Virus record (IMG/VR): IMGVR_UViG_3300017747_003196
Coordinates: 1 to 39,268 of that record
Direction: 5' to 3' (one strand)
Origin: a virus
Taxonomy: Duplodnaviria > Caudoviricetes
Length of the DNA: 39,268 nt
Shown piece by piece: positions 16,334 to 39,268 of this stretch (the first letter of the stretch is position 1; the number at the start of each line of letters is the position of its first letter). The notes beneath the pieces are model-generated. The model made no database searches, was not told where the DNA came from, and saw only the letters and a list, made by a program, of their open reading frames with translations. The translations under genes were made by a program, and so were the position numbers.

Positions 16334-16612
16334 TCAGTTTTTTATGTTGAATCGAGAGCACGCTTTTCTCCAAGCTTGTTCAGCAGTCTGTGCGCCTTTG
16401 AGAATTTCAATAACGTCAGCAACGCGGCTGCGGTAATACGGCGCAACCGGGCTTCCAACAAACCAGTTGTAGACAGTCTGGCGCGTAGCGCCGGTAGCCT
16501 TGGCAACTCGAATTACGGAAATTTTCAAACGTGCTGTTTCTTTGCGCAGTTCTTCACACAAAGTTAGCGGGTCAAGCGTGTAAGTCTCAACGGTTTCTTC
16601 TGTATTTGTCAT
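16334..16612 (-). CDS. Cro-like helix-turn-helix protein
   Basis: HTH signature 'SVIRVAKATGATRQTVYNWFVG'. Confidence 0.75.
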   Translation of the reverse strand: MTNTEETVETYTLDPLTLCEELRKETARLKISVIRVAKATGATRQTVYNWFVGSPVAPYYRSRVADVIEILKGAQTAEQAWRKACSRFNIKN

Positions 16613-17605: not shown

Positions 17606-18013
17606 TTAGTTGGTAGGTTTACGAACAGTTACTTCATACTTCGAATCAGAGTTGAGCCCGGGCGGCAGCAAGTCCGGGTTGTCCTCCAAAAACTTGGCCA
17701 TGTTCTTCTGCGCAATGCGCCGCTCAAGAAGATCAACAGCGTCGTTTTGTACAACAAACTTGTGGAACGATTCCCAGTCATGCGTCTCGTAGCGGGTTTT
17801 GATGCTCATGATCACAGTGCCGTAATCAGTGCGAACTGACTTGACGCCAAGTGCTTTCATGTTGTCCCGCATAGCGCTGGCGACTTCGTCGCGTTTGGTC
17901 TGAAGGTCTGCGAGTGCGGCTTCGTATTCTTTGGTCAACGCTTGCATCTTGCCGCGAATTTTCAAGTAAACCTTAGCAAGCGTGTCCATAGGTATAACAT
18001 CATTTTCTGACAC
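17606..18013 (-). CDS. Conserved phage coiled-coil protein preceding SSB
   Basis: GTG start at 18013 with RBS GAAGGAG. Motifs 'YLKIR', 'DWESF..FV', 'LLERRI' and 'PPGL'. Confidence 0.7.
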   Translation of the reverse strand: MSENDVIPMDTLAKVYLKIRGKMQALTKEYEAALADLQTKRDEVASAMRDNMKALGVKSVRTDYGTVIMSIKTRYETHDWESFHKFVVQNDAVDLLERRIAQKNMAKFLEDNPDLLPPGLNSDSKYEVTVRKPTN

Positions 18014-18190
18014 GTCGATCTCCTTCGTTGTATGTTTAGTAGGCCGGTCTTTCCCGGCTGTCAGCATGCACCCCATTGGGAGAATCATCGAAGACGATTT
18101 TGGTCACATGCAGGCGCGGTTGTTTGCAGTATGCGTAACCTGCAGCGGGGCACACTCACGCCTTATGCCTCCGTTTTCTACACGTAAAAC

Positions 18191-18219
18191 ATTTTACACA
18201 TGGATTTTTGCATCCGCAA
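18191..18219 (-). promoter_or_regulatory. Putative sigma70 promoter for the SSB/HTH/primase operon
   Basis: Minus strand TTGCGG-17 bp-TAAAAT at the helicase stop, leaving a leader of about 170 nt. Confidence 0.5.
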
Positions 18220-20303: not shown

Positions 20304-20963
20304 TTAATGGTCGGGGTGAAATTCGCAGGACTTGACCGGGCACCACGGGCAAAGCCCAGACTGTTTGGGGTTCCATACGTTGTTGGCAGCGCAAGCTTCG
20401 ATGCTGGCAACACGTTCACGGTACCGCTGCTGCAAGTTGTCGCGCATATCCAATGTAACTTTATGCTTGGTCACGCTCTCTTTTACAACAAACAGCAACG
20501 CAGCGTTGACGCGTTCGACTTGCGGGTAGTGAATAAACGTAAGCAACGACATCAAGTCCAGTTGGTCTCGGTCAGGGTATTTGTTACTACCCGTCTTGTA
20601 ATCAACAACCCACGCAACTTTCTTTTCCTCGTCCAATATGAGCAAGTCAACGATGCCGCGTACCCACGCTCTCTTATCAAACCAATCACACGGCTCGTAG
20701 TCAACCGTAGCAGCCAGTTTTAGCTCCGCGTGTTTACTTCCTTGCTTGTCCATCAATGCGGTCAACGTTGGTTGCAAGAAGGCAAACTGTTCAGGCAGCG
20801 GCGTGCCTTTTACGAACTGCTCTGCTGCTTTGTGTAGTTCGTTTCCGTAGCGTGTTTGCTGTGTTTCTACGAAGGGGTGTTTCTTTAATATCCGCGTTTC
20901 GTGATACTTGCGGGGGCAGTTTTCGAAGTCTTTGAGGGACGTGTGGGACCAGCTTATGGCCAT
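20304..20963 (-). CDS. PD-(D/E)XK RecB/Cas4-like exonuclease
   Basis: SHTSL..F..CP, G..LH, GIVDLL, VVDYKTG and C-terminal CPWCP..C. Confidence 0.85.
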   Translation of the reverse strand: MAISWSHTSLKDFENCPRKYHETRILKKHPFVETQQTRYGNELHKAAEQFVKGTPLPEQFAFLQPTLTALMDKQGSKHAELKLAATVDYEPCDWFDKRAWVRGIVDLLILDEEKKVAWVVDYKTGSNKYPDRDQLDLMSLLTFIHYPQVERVNAALLFVVKESVTKHKVTLDMRDNLQQRYRERVASIEACAANNVWNPKQSGLCPWCPVKSCEFHPDH

Positions 20964-21243
20964 TGAACACCTGTTTAATTACTTGCGTTAGCCTGTCGGC
21001 GAAACGGTCAACAAAGCGTTCGTCTTGTTCCAGTTCGTTGCGCATATCGCGCAGCACGGCGTGAACAATTTCATGCCAAAACGCCTGCTCCCGTTCATCC
21101 AAGGCAAAACGGCTGCCGTTGAAAGCGTGCGTAGCAAGTGTGATGTAACGACGTTGGTAGTCAATCTCACCCAACCGCCCATCAGGAAATGACGTTATGG
21201 CATTCAGCGAATACTTTGTACGACCTATGTGGATTGTGTCCAT
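20791..21243 (-). CDS. Small HExxH zinc metallopeptidase-like protein
   Basis: FWHEIVHAVL...DERFV with RBS GAAGGAG. The 3' part overlaps the nuclease gene by 173 nt. Confidence 0.65.
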   Translation of the reverse strand: MDTIHIGRTKYSLNAITSFPDGRLGEIDYQRRYITLATHAFNGSRFALDEREQAFWHEIVHAVLRDMRNELEQDERFVDRFADRLTQVIKQVFNGHKLVPHVPQRLRKLPPQVSRNADIKETPLRRNTANTLRKRTTQSSRAVRKRHAAA

Positions 21244-21269
21244 CGAACATCTCCTTCGTTGTTTTGGTT

Positions 21270-28465: not shown

Positions 28466-29593
28466 TTACTTCAGGTTGAGGAACAGCTTGTTGTCCGACA
28501 TCATGGAACGGAAGGCATCCACGGTGGCGAAGGTATTCAAGCGTGGGCTGTTGGATATCTGATTGACGAACAGCGACTGCATCTCCGCACGCATGCGCTT
28601 GATGTAGACCGTGACTGCTTGCGCATCCTCGCGGGACTTGGTGTTGACAATGAACTGCTGTATCTGCATGAGCTGCGCTGCAGGGTTGTCAATGATGGGA
28701 GTGTTGACGGGATCAGCAACGATGCGGTCATACAGCGGGATGTCACGATCAAGTGCAACCAACGCCATCAACGTGCGGGCACCCGCCTCACCTATCGCAC
28801 CGGCAAGCGCTGCCAACAACGTGTCGTGGTCAAGGTGGCCACATGTGTGCAACACGTCACTGGCTGCATGCAATGTGCGGGGGCTGACGTATCCGTCCTG
28901 CTTGATGCGGGGGTTGAACGGATACACGTTGCACTTGCTCATGTCCTTGCCAGCGTTGATGCCGCCCGGCTCGTAGTCCATGAACGACTCGAACACGATG
29001 GGGTTCTGGTCAACGAACACGATGACGGCGTGGTGCAGCCCGAACGGATACGCAAACTCGTTCTTCCACTCGTCCTTGGTGGGCTTGCGCATGATGACCT
29101 TGAGCATGCGGGTGCGCAGGTGTGCGAGCACCGAGTCGCCCAGACCCTCAACAGCTAGGTTGCTGGTGCCCCAGATGATGCTGCCCTCGGGGTAGTGCAG
29201 GGTGCCGGTGCGCCGCTCGAAGATGACGGGTGCGAGCACGTTCTTGATGAACTGCGGGGCTTTGAACAACTCATCAAGGCAGATGATGGACGGCCGGCTG
29301 CCGGCTAGACCACGATGGTTGGCCTTGCTGAGACAGAAGCGCTCGTTGGGAAGCTCGCGCGACACACCCGCCTCACGATCGATGTCCGGCATCCACACGC
29401 TACCGTCAGACAACTGCGTGCAGTCGATGGGGTCGAGCACGTTGTGCCCCAAGAACGCGGAGTCTTGGCGAAGCTCGTATTGGATGCTGGTCTTGCCAAC
29501 GCCGTTCTCGCCAAGGACGATCACGGTGCGCTTGTGACCCACGGACTTGATGAGGTCACGGACTTGCGAATGCGACAGAGTCGGAATCTGCAT
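28466..29593 (-). CDS. MoxR-like AAA+ ATPase
   Basis: GENGVGKT, ICLDE, GTSN and SPRT motifs. Adjacent to the vWA gene. Confidence 0.85.
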   Translation of the reverse strand: MQIPTLSHSQVRDLIKSVGHKRTVIVLGENGVGKTSIQYELRQDSAFLGHNVLDPIDCTQLSDGSVWMPDIDREAGVSRELPNERFCLSKANHRGLAGSRPSIICLDELFKAPQFIKNVLAPVIFERRTGTLHYPEGSIIWGTSNLAVEGLGDSVLAHLRTRMLKVIMRKPTKDEWKNEFAYPFGLHHAVIVFVDQNPIVFESFMDYEPGGINAGKDMSKCNVYPFNPRIKQDGYVSPRTLHAASDVLHTCGHLDHDTLLAALAGAIGEAGARTLMALVALDRDIPLYDRIVADPVNTPIIDNPAAQLMQIQQFIVNTKSREDAQAVTVYIKRMRAEMQSLFVNQISNSPRLNTFATVDAFRSMMSDNKLFLNLK

Positions 29594-29653
29594 GGTAATA
29601 CTCCTTCGTTGTAAGAGTGGGACTTGTGTCCCACTTTGTGTTGTTTGTTTGGG

Positions 29654-29682
29654 AGAATAATTAACTAGAAACTAGATGTCAA
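29654..29682 (-). promoter_or_regulatory. sigma70 promoter for the MoxR/vWA operon
   Basis: Minus strand TTGACA-17 bp-TATTCT. Confidence 0.7.
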
Positions 29683-29701
29683 GAACTTTACACCTCCTTC
29701 G

Positions 29702-30733
29702 TTAGTAATAATACGTTTTGGGGAGAGACTCGGGAAACTGCCCGAGGTCTACGGGGACATCACCTTTCCGGATGGGGCAGATGTTGTCGCGCAGGTAACG
29801 CTCGAAGGAACTGCGAACGGCATCGGGGGAGAGCATGGGCATGTGCTCGGGGATGGGGCTACCTGACCAGTGGAAATACTTGTGGGCATCCTGCCACGAC
29901 ACCTCGCGCTGCACCCACACGCCGAACGCATGCTTATAGACCGCCGCGAATATATCCTGCAGCACCTTGAACATGGGCTCGGACATGTCACCCAAGCGCT
30001 CATTGCTCCATTGCAGCAGATCACCAACTTTGTTGCGCGGGTAGTAGTCAATACCCTTGAACGCACGCCCATCGTCGCGATTGATCTTCGTCTCGGCATG
30101 CACCGAGGGTATGGAAAGCAGCAGGATGTCAATGTAGGGCTTCAGTTTGTCCATGAACTCGGTGCGCGTGGCGGTGGCGTCCTTGCTTGTGCGCTTGATG
30201 TATACGGGGCGATGGGCTGACCGCTCCAAGACCAACCCGTTGTCCTTGAACGTAAGGACAGCGCTCCAACTGGAAGGCACCGTGACGCCGTTGTCGGCCG
30301 TGAAGGCTGATGATACGTAAGTAGATAATGGTATCCGCACAGGACGTTTGGGTTGTCGCTTTTCTTGCTGGTCTGTTGTGTCCCATGCTTCGCGGACGCT
30401 GTGGCCGCTGAAGTTAGCCACACGCCACAGAAACTGTCTGGATGTCGTGGAGTTATGGTTGCGCAGCCACACTACGCTTGACCCATCGGCTTCGGGTTGG
30501 AAGTAGCGCACCATGGACGTGCCGTAGAGCATCAAGTCGTAGAACTCGGGGGAGCCTTGCAGCGTGGTTCTGCGTTCGATGCGGTAGTGCGTTGCGGATG
30601 TGGTGTGCAGCGGGCGCTGGTGTTCTTCCCAACGCTTGGAGCGTGGCGGCTTGCGCGTCTCGTTGAAGTAGCGCTGTGCCTGTGGGTAACCGCTGATGGT
30701 GGGAAGGTTGTGTATTGCTGTCTGAAATGACAT
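29702..30733 (-). CDS. Hypothetical early protein (343 aa)
   Basis: Long ORF with RBS GGAGAATCATC-ATG. No recognisable motif. Confidence 0.75.
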   Translation of the reverse strand: MSFQTAIHNLPTISGYPQAQRYFNETRKPPRSKRWEEHQRPLHTTSATHYRIERRTTLQGSPEFYDLMLYGTSMVRYFQPEADGSSVVWLRNHNSTTSRQFLWRVANFSGHSVREAWDTTDQQEKRQPKRPVRIPLSTYVSSAFTADNGVTVPSSWSAVLTFKDNGLVLERSAHRPVYIKRTSKDATATRTEFMDKLKPYIDILLLSIPSVHAETKINRDDGRAFKGIDYYPRNKVGDLLQWSNERLGDMSEPMFKVLQDIFAAVYKHAFGVWVQREVSWQDAHKYFHWSGSPIPEHMPMLSPDAVRSSFERYLRDNICPIRKGDVPVDLGQFPESLPKTYYY

Positions 30734-31797: not shown

Positions 31798-32202
31798 TCA
31801 AATTCTGGTTGTGACTTTCATGTAGCTGCCGCGCTTGCGGCCGGTCAGCGCTGCGCTGATCTTGGCGCGCCGCTCCTGTTCCTTCTCCAACCCAGCGCCG
31901 TAGCGTTTCATTTCAGCTTGGCGCTTGCGCAGTTTGGACACGACGTTGTTGCGCCGCCGGGTTGCCCGCTCTTTGCGCAGCAGGTTGAGCTTGGTCTGGA
32001 GTGCTCGCGCATCCAGTTCGGTGATGTCGCCACGCCACAACGCACGTTGAATAGCACGGCCGGAGTTGTCGCGCAGAAGCGTGGCGGTGCGGCAGGAAAA
32101 GCATGCGCGTTCGACGATTAAACGCTGTTTGAAGGGGCGCAGGAAGGCTTTTCTGTCCAAGTTTTTACAACAAACAGGGCACATCCAAATTATTTTAGGC
32201 AT
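31798..32202 (-). CDS. Basic Zn-finger protein with NUMOD3-like C-terminal motif
   Basis: ATG at 32202 with RBS AAAGGA. CPVC..CFSC and RRAKISAALTGRKRG. Confidence 0.6.
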   Translation of the reverse strand: MPKIIWMCPVCCKNLDRKAFLRPFKQRLIVERACFSCRTATLLRDNSGRAIQRALWRGDITELDARALQTKLNLLRKERATRRRNNVVSKLRKRQAEMKRYGAGLEKEQERRAKISAALTGRKRGSYMKVTTRI

Positions 32203-32533: not shown

Positions 32534-32576
32534 AATGTCTGGCATGTCAAATATTTGACATGTTCTCATTAACGTA

Positions 32577-33876: not shown

Positions 33877-33984
33877 TTATTTCTTGGCGAGCGCCGCAAG
33901 CAGGGCAGCAGCGAGAGCGTGGTTGCGCTCATACTGCGAGCGCAGCGTGTGAACAGCTGCTTGCTGCATTTGTTTCTGGGTCAT
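33877..33984 (-). CDS. 35-aa first early peptide
   Basis: MTQKQMQQAAVHTLRSQYERNHALAAALLAALAKK, RBS GGAGAATCAAC-ATG. Confidence 0.55.
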   Translation of the reverse strand: MTQKQMQQAAVHTLRSQYERNHALAAALLAALAKK

Positions 33985-34083
33985 GTTGATTCTCCAAAAG
34001 AAAGTGGGACACGAAGTCCCACAAGAAAGCCCCGCAAGCGGCGGGGCGGCGCAGTCGCTTGGAACCCCCAAACAACTACTTCT

Positions 34084-34094
34084 ATTATACCACA
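34084..34094 (-). promoter_or_regulatory. Extended -10 promoter driving the leftward early operon
   Basis: Minus strand TGTGG-TATAAT, a perfect TGnTATAAT. Confidence 0.65.
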
Positions 34095-34286
34095 GCGTGT
34101 TTTGGAAAACTGGAACCTTCTGTTAGCCCTCCAACAGACCCCACTGGGGGGCGGGGAGGCGTTTTGGCCGGGCAGCTTGGCAGCGACGCGATAACACTGT
34201 TTGTCTCCAATATTTATAAATACCACCCCTAGATGTAAAATATTAGACACAAAAAATTTTTTGTAAAATTTTTGACAAAGCATGTC

Positions 34287-34319
34287 AAAAAAATCCCCAG
34301 AGAGGAGGTTCCGGGGATT
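34287..34319 (-). terminator. Intrinsic terminator of the putative sRNA
   Basis: AAUCCCCGGA-ACCUCCUC-UCUGGGGAUU-UUUUU. The single non-Watson-Crick pair is G-U only on the minus strand. Confidence 0.7.
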
Positions 34320-34357
34320 AAAGGTGCCTAAGTAAACGGCACTACAACGAAGGAGCT
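34287..34357 (-). ncRNA. Putative ~70-nt trans-acting anti-RBS small RNA
   Basis: Promoter TTTACG-17-TATACT, 5' seed CUCCUUCGUUGUA, hairpin GUGCC/GGCAC, then a 10-bp terminator stem and U tract. Complementary to several phage RBSs. Confidence 0.65.
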
Positions 34358-34360
34358 TGC

Positions 34361-34389
34361 AGTATACTACCACTTGAGGGTATCGTAAA
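34361..34389 (-). promoter_or_regulatory. sigma70-like promoter of the putative sRNA
   Basis: -35 TTTACG (34389-34384), 17 bp, -10 TATACT (34366-34361). Confidence 0.6.
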
Positions 34390-34417
34390 CCCCATTCGCT
34401 ATATAGCGCGGAGTAAA

Positions 34418-35050
34418 ATGTTTGACCACCTTGTAACGGCAAGCGACGCTGATTTCGTGCCGGAAATTTTGGCCGCCGCTGGCGCTTTCACGCCTGATAG
34501 TAAAATTGCGCCCCATGAAATCATCGACGGCAAAGTGAAAACAGCCGAATGGTTACAAGAACTTGGCATCGATGATGACGAAGCTCTTGACGAAGCCGAA
34601 AAGAAAAGCGCGCAGCAAGCATTCGCCGCGCTCACCACGCCACTTGACGTCGAAGATCAGAAGAAAGCCTTGACAAACGTCGCAGTGCCGGGGGCTGTGA
34701 AGCACTTGGTAGGCATGCTGACCGCCTATGATTGGGCTTTTGTTGAGCAAGCCAAGGAGCTTAGAGGCTATTGCATTGCACAACTGCTTGAAGAATCGAA
34801 GCACCCCGATGCAAAAATAAGACTCAAAGCAGTTGAGTTGCTTGGTAAAGTCACAGAGGTAGCGCTCTTTACCGAACGCGTCGAGCTGAAGAAAACAGAG
34901 CTGTCTGACTCGGAGTTGCAAGCTGAAATTGACAAGCGCATGGGTAAATACATGCACTTGATGAAGGTTGTTGACGGCGAAACGCTTGACAACGAGCCCC
35001 CTCTAACAGAAACAGTGCCCCAAACCGATGACAGCCCCGCAGAGTCGTGA
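34418..35050 (+). CDS. Probable terminase small subunit
   Basis: Directly upstream of and overlapping terL. 'IRLKAVELLGK' helix motif, RBS GGAG. Confidence 0.65.
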   Translation: MFDHLVTASDADFVPEILAAAGAFTPDSKIAPHEIIDGKVKTAEWLQELGIDDDEALDEAEKKSAQQAFAALTTPLDVEDQKKALTNVAVPGAVKHLVGMLTAYDWAFVEQAKELRGYCIAQLLEESKHPDAKIRLKAVELLGKVTEVALFTERVELKKTELSDSELQAEIDKRMGKYMHLMKVVDGETLDNEPPLTETVPQTDDSPAES

Positions 35051-36514: not shown

Positions 36515-36856
36515 ATGGCTAAGTCTCTTGTAAACGAAAAGGCTTTGCGGGCTGCATACCAGCTGCTCAAGGTGACGACGTTCAAGGACGTGAAGCTGCC
36601 GACCGCCAGTAGGGTAACTTTTAGAGCAGCAAAGCTGAAGAAGTATCACGCATTATATGAGTGGCCCGAACATGTAATGACCGTGAATGTGGATACAGAG
36701 GCTTTGTCGGACATGCTAAAGATTGTTGCGCACGAAATGATACACATAGCACTAGAGCACAACGCCAAGTGTGATCACGACCACCACGATGAGAATTTCA
36801 TTGAGATGGCTAATCAGGTCTGCAGAGACTTGAAATGGGACGGCGGCGTTTTGTAA
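36515..36856 (+). CDS. SprT-like/zincin HExxH protein
   Basis: VAHEMIHIA...H..NF, RBS AGGAG. Confidence 0.7.
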   Translation: MAKSLVNEKALRAAYQLLKVTTFKDVKLPTASRVTFRAAKLKKYHALYEWPEHVMTVNVDTEALSDMLKIVAHEMIHIALEHNAKCDHDHHDENFIEMANQVCRDLKWDGGVL

Positions 36857-36877
36857 GACATTTTTTAAGGATAAATC

Positions 36878-39268
36878 ATGGCAATAGACAAAGCACTGTA
36901 CGAAGCCCCCGTTGGCGTTGAAGAAGCCGCTATCGCGGAGCCGGAAGTTGAAATTGAAATCGTTGACCCGGAGTCGGTATCCATCGGCATAGATGGTGTT
37001 GAAATTGAACTTACACCGGGAAAAGAAACTTCGGAAGATTTTGGAGCCAACCTTGTTGAGTATATCGACGCAGGGGAGATGGAGTCCATTGTTTCGCAAG
37101 TTGCCGGGGATGTACGCAACGATTTGAATAGCCGCTCGGACTGGGAAAAAATGCTGAAGGAAGGCATCCAGTTGTTAGGTCTTAAATACGAAGAGCGAAG
37201 CGAGCCATGGTCGGGTGCGTGCGGTGTATTCCACCCCATGATTACTGAAGCGGTAATTCGTTTTCAAGCAGATACAATAATGGAAACGTTCCCTGCGCCC
37301 GGACCAGTCAAAACCAAGATTGTTGGCAAAGTTACGCGCGACAAGGAAGAAGCTGCGACGCGGGTTGCTGATGACCTTAACTGGCAGCTAACTGAAAACA
37401 TGACGGAGTTTCGCCCCGAGCATGAAAAGATGCTGTGGGGGCTGCCAGCATCTGGCGCTGCATTCAAGAAGGTCTACAAAGACCCGATGTTGGACCGCCA
37501 GACTTCTGTTTATGTGGCGGCGGAAGACATCATTTTGCCTTACGGCTCTTCTGATCTTCAGACCGCGCCGCGCATCACCCACCGCATGCGCAAGACCAAG
37601 AACGAAGTGGCCATGCTGCAGGCCGACGGGTTTTGGGTTGATAGCGATCTGGGCGAGCCGTCAAGGATGGTGGACGATATTCGCAAGACCAAGGACACAG
37701 AAGCTGGCGTGTCCGCTATTAACGACGACCGATACGTGATTGACGAAGTATGCGTAGACCTTGATTTGCCCGGATACGAAGATACCGATAAAGAGGGTAA
37801 CCCAACCGGTGTTGCGCTACCGTACATCCTGACTTACGTTGTGGGGTCCAATATCCCGTTGTCGCTGCGTCGCAACTGGCGCGAAAACGACAACAACCGC
37901 AGGAAGCGTTTGCACTACGTGCAGTATACGTATGTGCCCGGGTTTGGGCCTTACGGGTTCGGTCTCTTTCACCTGATTGGTGGTTACGCCAAGGCGGGTA
38001 CGTCCATTCTCCGCCAGTTAGTTGATGCAGGTACGCTGTCTAATCTGCCCGGAGGGCTGAAGTCGAGGGGTCTGCGCATCAAAGGGGATGACACGCCGAT
38101 CGCTCCGGGCGAGTTTAGGGACGTTGATGTGGGTAGCGGAGCCATACGGGACAACATTCTTCCGTTGCCTTACAAAGAACCGTCGCAGGTGCTGGCTGGG
38201 CTGCTGGACAAGATCATCGATGAAGGCCGACGGCTGGCTGCTTCCAGTGATTTAAAAGTTGCGGACATGTCCGCTCAGACCCCGGTTGGCACAACGCTCG
38301 CACTGCTGGAGCGGACGCTCAAGCCCCTGACGGCTGTGCAGGCACGGGTCCACTACTCGTTCAAGCAAGAACTGCAGTTGATTGCTGAGATTGTCCGCGA
38401 AGATTCTCCTGCTAACAAAGAGTATCCGTATGACGTGGACGCGCCGCAAGGGCGCAAGGCCAAGTACGAAGACTATCGTCATGTGGAGATTATTCCCGTC
38501 TCCGACCCCAACGCGGCGACGATGACGCAGCGAATTGTGCAGTACCAAGCCGTTATTCAACTATCCCAGAGCGCTCCGCAGATTTACAACTTGCCGGAAC
38601 TGCACAGGCAGATGTTGAATGTTTTGGGTATTAAAAATGTGGATAAACTGGTGCCGACGGAAGATGATCTTAAACCGATGGACCCGGTGACGGAAAATCA
38701 GAACATCCTGAACGGTAAACCCGTGAAAGCGTTTGCATATCAGGACCACGAAGCACATATTGCGGTCCACATGATGATGAAACAAGACCCGCTTATCCAG
38801 CAGATCGTAGGGCAAAATCCGCGCGTTAATGCTCTTGTTGCCGGGTTGGAAGCGCATGTTGCCGAACACGTTGGGTTTGCATACAAAAACAAAATCAGCG
38901 AAGCGCTGGGTGTGGCTATTCCGCATGCGGATGCTGATGAAGGTATGCCGGAAGAAATTGAATTTCAATTATCCAAGTTGCTTGCACAGGCTGCCCCGCA
39001 AGTTCTTGCGCAAAGTAAAGCAATGGTTGCACAACAGCAGGCCCAGCAGAATATGCAAGACCCCCTGCTGCAGCTTCAGAAACAAGAGTTGGACCTTAAA
39101 GCACAGAAGCAGCAACAAGACGCTGCATATAGAGACAAGAAACTTGCAGTAGATTCGGCCGCTAAAGCAGATGAATTGCAGCTGCGGGAACAGGAAATTG
39201 CGGGGCGACAGCGGATAGATTCGCTGCGCGTGGTTACGGACGCTGCGGCTAAAGCCGCACAATCTGAA
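36878..39268 (+). CDS. Portal protein, 3'-truncated (absent from ORF track, consistent with no stop before the window end)
   Basis: ATG at 36878 after AAGGA. Segments I translated: MAIDKALYEAP, SRSDWE, PWSGACGVFHP, FKKVY, PGFGPYGFGL, LRQLVDAGTLSNLP, and a Q-rich barrel-like tail. Confidence 0.88.
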   Translation, partial: MAIDKALYEAPVGVEEAAIAEPEVEIEIVDPESVSIGIDGVEIELTPGKETSEDFGANLVEYIDAGEMESIVSQVAGDVRNDLNSRSDWEKMLKEGIQLLGLKYEERSEPWSGACGVFHPMITEAVIRFQADTIMETFPAPGPVKTKIVGKVTRDKEEAATRVADDLNWQLTENMTEFRPEHEKMLWGLPASGAAFKKVYKDPMLDRQTSVYVAAEDIILPYGSSDLQTAPRITHRMRKTKNEVAMLQADGFWVDSDLGEPSRMVDDIRKTKDTEAGVSAINDDRYVIDEVCVDLDLPGYEDTDKEGNPTGVALPYILTYVVGSNIPLSLRRNWRENDNNRRKRLHYVQYTYVPGFGPYGFGLFHLIGGYAKAGTSILRQLVDAGTLSNLPGGLKSRGLRIKGDDTPIAPGEFRDVDVGSGAIRDNILPLPYKEPSQVLAGLLDKIIDEGRRLAASSDLKVADMSAQTPVGTTLALLERTLKPLTAVQARVHYSFKQELQLIAEIVREDSPANKEYPYDVDAPQGRKAKYEDYRHVEIIPVSDPNAATMTQRIVQYQAVIQLSQSAPQIYNLPELHRQMLNVLGIKNVDKLVPTEDDLKPMDPVTENQNILNGKPVKAFAYQDHEAHIAVHMMMKQDPLIQQIVGQNPRVNALVAGLEAHVAEHVGFAYKNKISEALGVAIPHADADEGMPEEIEFQLSKLLAQAAPQVLAQSKAMVAQQQAQQNMQDPLLQLQKQELDLKAQKQQQDAAYRDKKLAVDSAAKADELQLREQEIAGRQRIDSLRVVTDAAAKAAQSE

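Follow-up and report, generated by a model that had tools for sequence, protein, structure and literature searches.

Results

Layout of the small-RNA unit

The window, i.e. the whole stretch of DNA analysed (39,268 nucleotides), is a 39-kb linear fragment of a podophage and is ~62% complete. The structural genes are on the plus strand, while the early and replication genes are on the minus strand. Between the early region and a terS-like gene, the minus strand carries a promoter-like sequence followed by the parts of a putative small RNA (sRNA):

34418..35050, plus strand: terS-like gene, named by its position before terL, divergent from the sRNA gene and used as the anchor for comparison
34389-34361, minus strand: candidate sigma70-type sRNA promoter, TTTACG (34389-34384), 17 nt, TATACT (34366-34361), judged by consensus match
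34343..34355, minus strand: unpaired 5' seed CUCCUUCGUUGUA, an anti-Shine-Dalgarno (anti-SD) motif plus 7 flanking nucleotides
34324..34342, minus strand: middle hairpin with a 5-bp stem and a 9-nt loop
34285..34319, minus strand: intrinsic terminator, a 10-pair stem (34319-34292) followed by a U tract

This order of promoter, seed, hairpin and terminator had been proposed from the letters of the window (hereinafter the original prediction); all parts were located, and the seed is predicted to be open. Transcription is predicted to start at 34354-34357 and to give a product of roughly 70 nt, with a predicted folding energy of −23.1 kcal/mol (z −3.2) and the first 14 nt unpaired. The −10 element sits in a palindrome (34361-34368), and the plus strand likewise reads TATACT there, which may make the promoter bidirectional. 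The original prediction also held that the unit contains no open reading frame, which is correct only in part. A 153-codon TTG frame (33981-34442, minus strand) crosses the unit; it lacks an SD sequence and is absent in 16 of 31 genomes, and it was rejected as a real gene. Two features of trans-encoded sRNAs appear to be present, namely a promoter and an intrinsic terminator of its own (both consensus matches) with no conserved ORF, and a conserved, predicted unpaired seed complementary to distant translation initiation regions. In three metatranscriptomes, short assembled contigs lie over terS and other coding parts and none lies over the sRNA, and such contigs cannot show strand, ends, absence or a 70-nt RNA.

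Predicted targets in the window

Exact copies of the 12-mer ACAACGAAGGAG lie on the minus strand of the window at 18020, 21251 and 29601 and on its plus strand at 34344. The three minus-strand copies are ribosome-binding sites (RBSs), each at the head of a gene block:

29601..29613, minus strand: target 1, RBS of an AAA ATPase gene (28466-29593), the first gene of the ATPase/vWA block; predicted binding −19 to −20.5 kcal/mol
21251..21262, minus strand: target 2, RBS of a 150-aa gene (20791-21243), which heads a PD-(D/E)XK nuclease / HNH / SNF2-type helicase block; predicted binding −17.8 kcal/mol
18020..18032, minus strand: target 3, RBS of a 135-aa gene (17606-18013, GTG start, DUF7307-like), which heads a block of 135-aa, 316-aa and HTH genes; predicted binding −18.0 kcal/mol

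The complements are exact and of the lengths originally claimed, 13 nt at 29601, 13 nt at 18020 and 12 nt at 21251, with the start codon 6–7 nt downstream of each. In predicted pairing with the 36 genes of the window, found with a crude gene caller of our own, these three RBSs rank as the top three. The seed duplex is predicted at −21 to −23 kcal/mol; the corresponding value for the 16S tail motif is −8 to −9 kcal/mol.

The matches are far more numerous than shuffled sequence would give. Specifically, 10 sites match ACAACGAAGGAG with at most two mismatches, compared with 2.83 ± 1.60 in 100 shuffles, none of which reaches 10. Three of the seven AAGGAG sites have identical six flanking bases, for which the chance is ~4e-9 given the base make-up of the other RBS flanks in the window, or ~4e-6 when one site is allowed to define the motif. 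A chance origin of the shared RBS flanks is thus excluded even with the SD sequence granted.

Two further matches had been put forward. The additional pairing of GTTTA and TAGGC (18034-18044) with the middle hairpin exists as a sequence match, but it is unused in the predicted duplex and is altered in the nearest relative, G001. The 10-nt match at 29694-29703 is likewise present, but it is probably incidental because GTG TAA follows it, its predicted binding is weaker (−11.8 kcal/mol, compared with about −18 to −20.5 kcal/mol at the three predicted targets) and it is changed in G001. Both were dropped as target features.

The gene labels fared unevenly. ATPase and vWA are supported, while "peptidase" for the 150-aa gene is a lead from SprT/M78-like clusters at 0.92, with no Pfam match. 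The terS-like and SSB-like genes have no family match, and the labels "terS" and "SSB" rest on position.

Conservation of the unit in related phages

A search with terS yielded 80 loci, of which four are too short upstream. With loose patterns, a −10-like hexamer, an anti-SD motif and a terminator were found opposite the terS upstream region in all of the remaining 76 loci. ATPase-anchored loci supplied further seed types. We fetched the 30 longest contigs (six without their last 0.1–2.4 kb), delimited each sRNA from the −10 element to the U tract with hand-set anchors, and sorted the RNAs into 11 seed groups, by eye from seed type and not from a tree. One relative (G007, an 80.5-kb record) carries a second terL, a primase and a helicase of an unrelated phage (L092:1-16700) and is probably chimeric.

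The seed is near-invariant in 17 of the 80 terS-anchored loci, which form seed group A, the group of the window. In the relatives the stem of the middle hairpin is kept, while stem sequence and loop length vary. Among 22 group B sequences, the seed columns do not vary, while double changes are seen at 4 of 16 stem pairs. RNAalifold gave no consensus for 13 group A sequences because variable loops were misaligned, and single folds were taken instead. Across the groups, the predicted folds are of three kinds: the seed forms a 5' tail in group A, joins two hairpins in B, C and others, and lies within a large loop in D. Despite these differences, in 29 of 31 genomes the anti-SD motif is predicted to be unpaired (at least 0.72). 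An exposed CUCCU-like motif is the one trait shared by every group. Many group A RNAs have a second CCUCCU motif in the terminator loop (34292-34319 in the window). Position and spacing of the sRNA promoter are conserved; the −35 element matches the consensus at 5–6 of 6 positions in group C, and at 1–2 of 6 in 7 of 31 genomes.

Rfam searches gave no match to the sRNA; in the window the sole hit was Chlorobi-1 at E 0.95, outside the sRNA, and 11 related loci gave weak, terminator-driven matches, all below gathering score. Scans with promoter-plus-seed patterns hit the terS region at 9 of 47 and 7 of 12 examined loci (in the second scan, one of 13 was left out as non-independent), the rest being mostly unrelated chance loci. 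Judged by its conservation across these sequences, the sRNA unit is a real, conserved element.

Several observations were made alongside. In four unrelated viral contigs with no terS or terL match (L132, L143, L160 and L166), the same seed stands before a hairpin-terminator, which may reflect convergence or transfer of an RNA. The terS gene lacks an SD sequence in groups B and C, and in C there is a GAGG inside a hairpin. A group C phage has, among its early genes, a stretch (L205:3135-3184, plus strand) that resembles a type III hammerhead (36.8 bits, E 3e-4, below gathering score).

The plus-strand copy at 34344 could also be read with no antisense RNA at all, as the RBS of a lost or small upstream gene (the fallback of the original prediction) or as a DNA repeat or protein site common to early genes. 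Groups B2, C and E do have an ATG at RBS spacing after this copy. However, the frames that follow are 2 to 59 codons long and share no peptide, and no such frame exists in the window or in 13 other genomes; such an upstream ORF was dropped as a candidate. Moreover, the orientation of the copy is always opposite to that of the targets, it lies between the −10 element and the terminator, and compensating stem changes surround it. We regard this reading as highly improbable.

Covariation of seed and targets

The covariation of seed and targets across relatives, proposed as a check, was examined at the level of the 11 seed groups. Orthologues of the three window targets were paired with cognate and foreign RNAs. 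The longest complement is 9.0 nt for cognate pairs and 6.1 nt for swapped pairs, and the binding is 12.8 and 7.5 kcal/mol, respectively. The RNA of the own phage is favoured with p 1e-5 (0 of 100,000 permutations), and the result is the same without group A; with all early genes, p is 5e-6. Internal early genes show no effect (p 0.28 and 0.63) and terL is borderline (p 0.09 and 0.05). For terS, p is 0.0013 by length (5.5 versus 4.9 nt) and 0.34 by energy, the length signal possibly arising because the terS leader abuts the sRNA locus. The cognate RNA is the best binder in 6 of 11 groups by energy and in 8 of 11 by length; in groups B1 and D (G013, G030 and G038), mean early-gene binding is weaker for cognate than for foreign RNAs. 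The relatives compared are not independent, and CUCCUCC-seed variants, known from contigs without target genes, lie outside the comparison.

Group A RNAs would pair upstream of the SD sequence, while those of groups B and C would pair across the start codon, at the same orthologues. In 10 genomes, the early strand holds 54 of the 60 top-six targets; the difference between early and late strand is significant in seven of them and has p 0.32, 0.058 and 0.14 in the other three, with G007 retained despite its unrelated phage segment. In 20 genomes, seed cores picked by eye have 86 early-strand matches, 78 of which precede a start codon, and 5 late-strand matches, a partly circular count. G006 retains the seed with imperfect target sites. 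G050, a genome obtained only once these tests were complete, has a new seed, and its two best early-strand matches in 83.8 kb fall on the RBSs of the 135-aa and 150-aa orthologues.

These data make it highly probable that the sRNA pairs in trans with these RBSs. Because seed and targets changed together across relatives, the sRNA likely switches those blocks off. The RNA might instead be a general anti-SD sponge that acts mainly on host mRNAs, the phage matches being secondary, a reading that would suit the exposed CUCCU-like motif as the sole all-group feature and its second copy in the group A terminator loops. The bases beyond the SD sequence, however, track the RBSs of the own phage group by group, which makes a sponge very unlikely.

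An operator layer on the same units

A 16-bp operator-like palindrome, TGTCwAA-nn-TTwGACA, occurs at six sites in the window, all on the early arm (listed without strand):

34262..34277: operator-like site 9 nt behind the sRNA terminator
34234..34249: second operator-like site, in the early promoter region
32545..32560: operator-like site before a 217-aa early gene
32154..32169: operator-like match inside the 217-aa early gene region, not seen there in relatives
29677..29692: operator-like site overlapping the −35 element (TTGACA) of the ATPase promoter
18183..18198: operator-like site ~170 nt upstream of the 135-aa gene

The palindromes at the early, ATPase and SSB-block promoters are in the same places in most relatives, and in most other groups an operator-like site lies directly before the RBS of the 135-aa orthologue. 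A palindrome is found within 40 nt behind the sRNA terminator in 25 of 31 genomes and over the sRNA promoter in only one of 31. The top three sRNA targets include 12 of 31 operator-headed genes and 54 of 547 others (Fisher p 5e-5), for a pattern relaxed after inspection, among related genomes and operon heads that tend to have strong SDs, with the unrelated segment of G007 left out.

A candidate binder of the palindrome is encoded in the block headed by target 3:

16334..16612, minus strand: Cro-like HTH gene, 92 aa, the last gene of that block

The gene is conserved, and its family matches HTH_23 in 8 of 15 members (best E 5e-6) and P22_Cro in 3 of 15. PDB profile searches with the 135-aa and HTH families gave nothing useful. 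The 92-aa gene has no SD sequence and lies behind a GC hairpin. We infer that its product binds the palindrome. A protein repressor arm, made up of the conserved operator on these units and this HTH gene, does appear to be present in the phage. The apparent coincidence of a palindromic operator with the units targeted by the sRNA, together with the conserved Cro-like HTH gene, is new here.

An inverted GTGGGAC...GTCCCAC motif is also repeated in the early intergenic regions (29617-29634, 30769, 31758, 33101, 33612 and 34004-34022), with one copy immediately preceding the ATPase RBS, and G001, G002, G008 and G047 have similar GGGAC/GTCCC motifs. It may serve as another protein site or form an RNA hairpin.

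The same pairing could be timed by the sRNA promoter itself, if its palindromic −10 element were shared with terS and the sRNA came on with late transcription, or the RNA could merely tune a threshold. A TAnnnT on the opposite strand overlaps the −10 element in 25 of 31 genomes; the palindrome is exact in the window and most of group B, and in some relatives the −10 element lies 12–22 nt from the terS start. Nevertheless, TAnnnT hexamers are common in AT-rich DNA, the window lacks a plus-strand −35 element, the opposite −10 is missing in 6 of 31 genomes, and the group C −35 boxes are near-perfect in the sRNA direction. We consider such timing, or plain tuning, distinctly unlikely.

Phage group and lifestyle

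The phage belongs to what appears to be a large, widespread, uncultured and apparently lytic group from lakes, with at least 559 confirmed terS relatives in an IMG/VR scan. Neither blastn with the sRNA region nor tblastn with terS gave a match among isolated phages, and no cultured member was found among the isolates compared. Pelagiphages of the HTVC023P type have a terL 48–57% identical to that of the window phage, with no terS match and a different gene order, and the DNA polymerase is at most 32% identical to that of any isolate. Of the 80 terS-anchored contigs (L001-L080), 16 stop at scattered points 75–490 nt upstream of terS, either at an assembly break in a variable region or at a genome end. 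A block of small minus-strand ORFs without family match follows terL in the window (36515-39262), where G001 has the portal gene directly.

A different role for the same pairing is RNA immunity or dormancy. The switch of these integrase-free lake podophages would then be one sRNA with a lineage-specific seed code in the replication-operon RBSs, acting beside the Cro-like repressor; a stable RNA would silence the replication blocks in a carrier state or in a newcomer with the same seed, and the seeds, diversifying like immunity groups, would define 11 or more groups that hold dormancy or exclude same-seed competitors. Several observations fit this role. The sRNA promoter looks constitutive and operator-free, and there are at least 11 seed types with matched targets, resembling the heteroimmunity of P1/P7 c4 (PMC12197685). 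In addition, one MAG contig, G050 (C24 near 48990-49130; L370:8990-9130), joins the phage to a bacterial ligA and Bacteroidota-type genes ~300 nt past the sRNA.

This junction, the only one, is probably chimeric because the promoters and the lack of SD use in Bacteroidota differ from what this phage carries, although a prophage end would look alike. No integrase or partition family was found in the scanned ORFs of G001 (57 of 84), G030 (81 called, at least 79 scanned) and parts of G029 and G013. A DNA polymerase scan of 185,579 genomes gave no relative, the five matches from the terS scan are all in MAG contigs, and no credible prophage was found in these scans. An immunity or dormancy role is accordingly an unlikely one. 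The original prediction had allowed for dormancy without a CI repressor, which finds no direct support here: no integrase was seen among the scanned ORFs, no credible prophage came to light, and a Cro-like repressor arm appears to be present. Its other proposal, a late switch acting on the middle and replication blocks, fits, and the underlying pairing with RBSs is strongly supported by covariation.

Discussion

The comparison with related genomes suggests that the locus is likely a stand-alone sRNA gene. Its product of ~70 nt would pair in trans with the SD regions of the genes that head the early and replication blocks of the same phage, and would thereby keep these genes from being translated.

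Several known systems share parts of this arrangement. The c4 RNA is processed from the antirepressor operon of a temperate phage and controls that one operon, while the window sRNA has a predicted promoter and terminator of its own and several operon-head targets about 5–16 kb away. The scanned ORFs include no antirepressor or integrase family, the targets being the ATPase, 150-aa and 135-aa genes, and the c4 model RF01695 gives no match at E 1 in the window or at E 0.5 in 11 related loci. P22 sar lies opposite its single target, while the targets here are 4.7, 13 and 16 kb from the sRNA locus; the original prediction named both RNAs as precedents, and the membership in the sar-type cis-antisense class does not hold, whereas a c4-like occlusion of RBSs is predicted from the sequence. 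The c4 antisense RNA of P1/P7 (RF01695) is likewise a phage RNA that pairs near the RBS of a phage mRNA, phage-specifically, and blocks its translation (PMC12197685, PMC8201110, PMC2864571). Phage-specific RBS pairing of this kind is predicted for the window sRNA. Like sar, lambda OOP and aQ, BTP1 STnc6030 and PAK_P4as15 are phage RNAs that repress phage genes by pairing and lie opposite their single target (PMC12197685). Unlike such cis-antisense RNAs as sar and OOP, the window sRNA is distant from its targets and would act through a seed of 9–16 nt, with matches of 12–13 nt in the window.

The order of seed, hairpin and terminator is also that of RyhB and GcvB. The trans-encoded seed sRNAs lambda PreS and VP882 VpdS similarly have an unpaired seed, a hairpin, an intrinsic terminator and several targets. 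Unlike them, the sRNA has its traced targets at the operon heads of its own phage, and within its family even the seed has been exchanged. PreS acts on host dnaN, and VpdS influences mRNAs of both host and phage via Hfq (PMC12197685). An exposed CCUCC-type motif is common to the window sRNA and the Cuckoo/CcsR sRNAs, and the predicted specificity of the former reaches beyond the SD sequence. Cuckoo/CcsR sRNAs carry repeated hairpins with CCUCCUCCC loops; the window sRNA has no repeated CCUCCUCCC-loop hairpin modules and no Rfam match at gathering score.

A published description of such an sRNA was not found in the full-text papers searched, subscription papers being mostly outside that scope. 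Five seed strings are absent from six supplement files of PMC10690425 (10,006 candidate viral RNAs), and its other supplements may list the family unnamed. The seed-sRNA would be a new form of trans-acting antisense control, well supported by the sequence comparison.

How the RNA would act in time can be outlined. Because the sRNA promoter has no operator, host sigma70 polymerase would transcribe the sRNA from infection onward. Early and middle mRNAs from strong promoters would initially exceed it and be translated. The Cro-like HTH protein would then accumulate and repress the operator-bearing early, ATPase and replication promoters, upon which the sRNA would outnumber the leftover mRNAs, its duplexes of 12–13 bp covering the RBSs much more strongly than the pairing of the 16S tail. 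The predicted outcome is a sharp cut-off of the ATPase/vWA, nuclease/helicase and SSB-like blocks, with possible polar effects on the genes downstream. On balance, it is somewhat more likely than not that the sRNA has this timing role, as the RNA layer of a two-layer early-to-late shut-off, protein plus RNA, during lytic growth.

The phage regulatory RNAs described so far are mostly from temperate phages and have one gene or the host as target (PMC12197685). Here, an apparently lytic group seems to govern several of its own operons by one seed, and seed, fold and targets seem to have been rewritten together many times. The family would thereby provide a natural collection of matched and mismatched RNA-target pairs, testable without the host. 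An RNA layer tied to an operator layer on the same operons may be one answer to the question of how phages without an RNA polymerase of their own silence their early genes.
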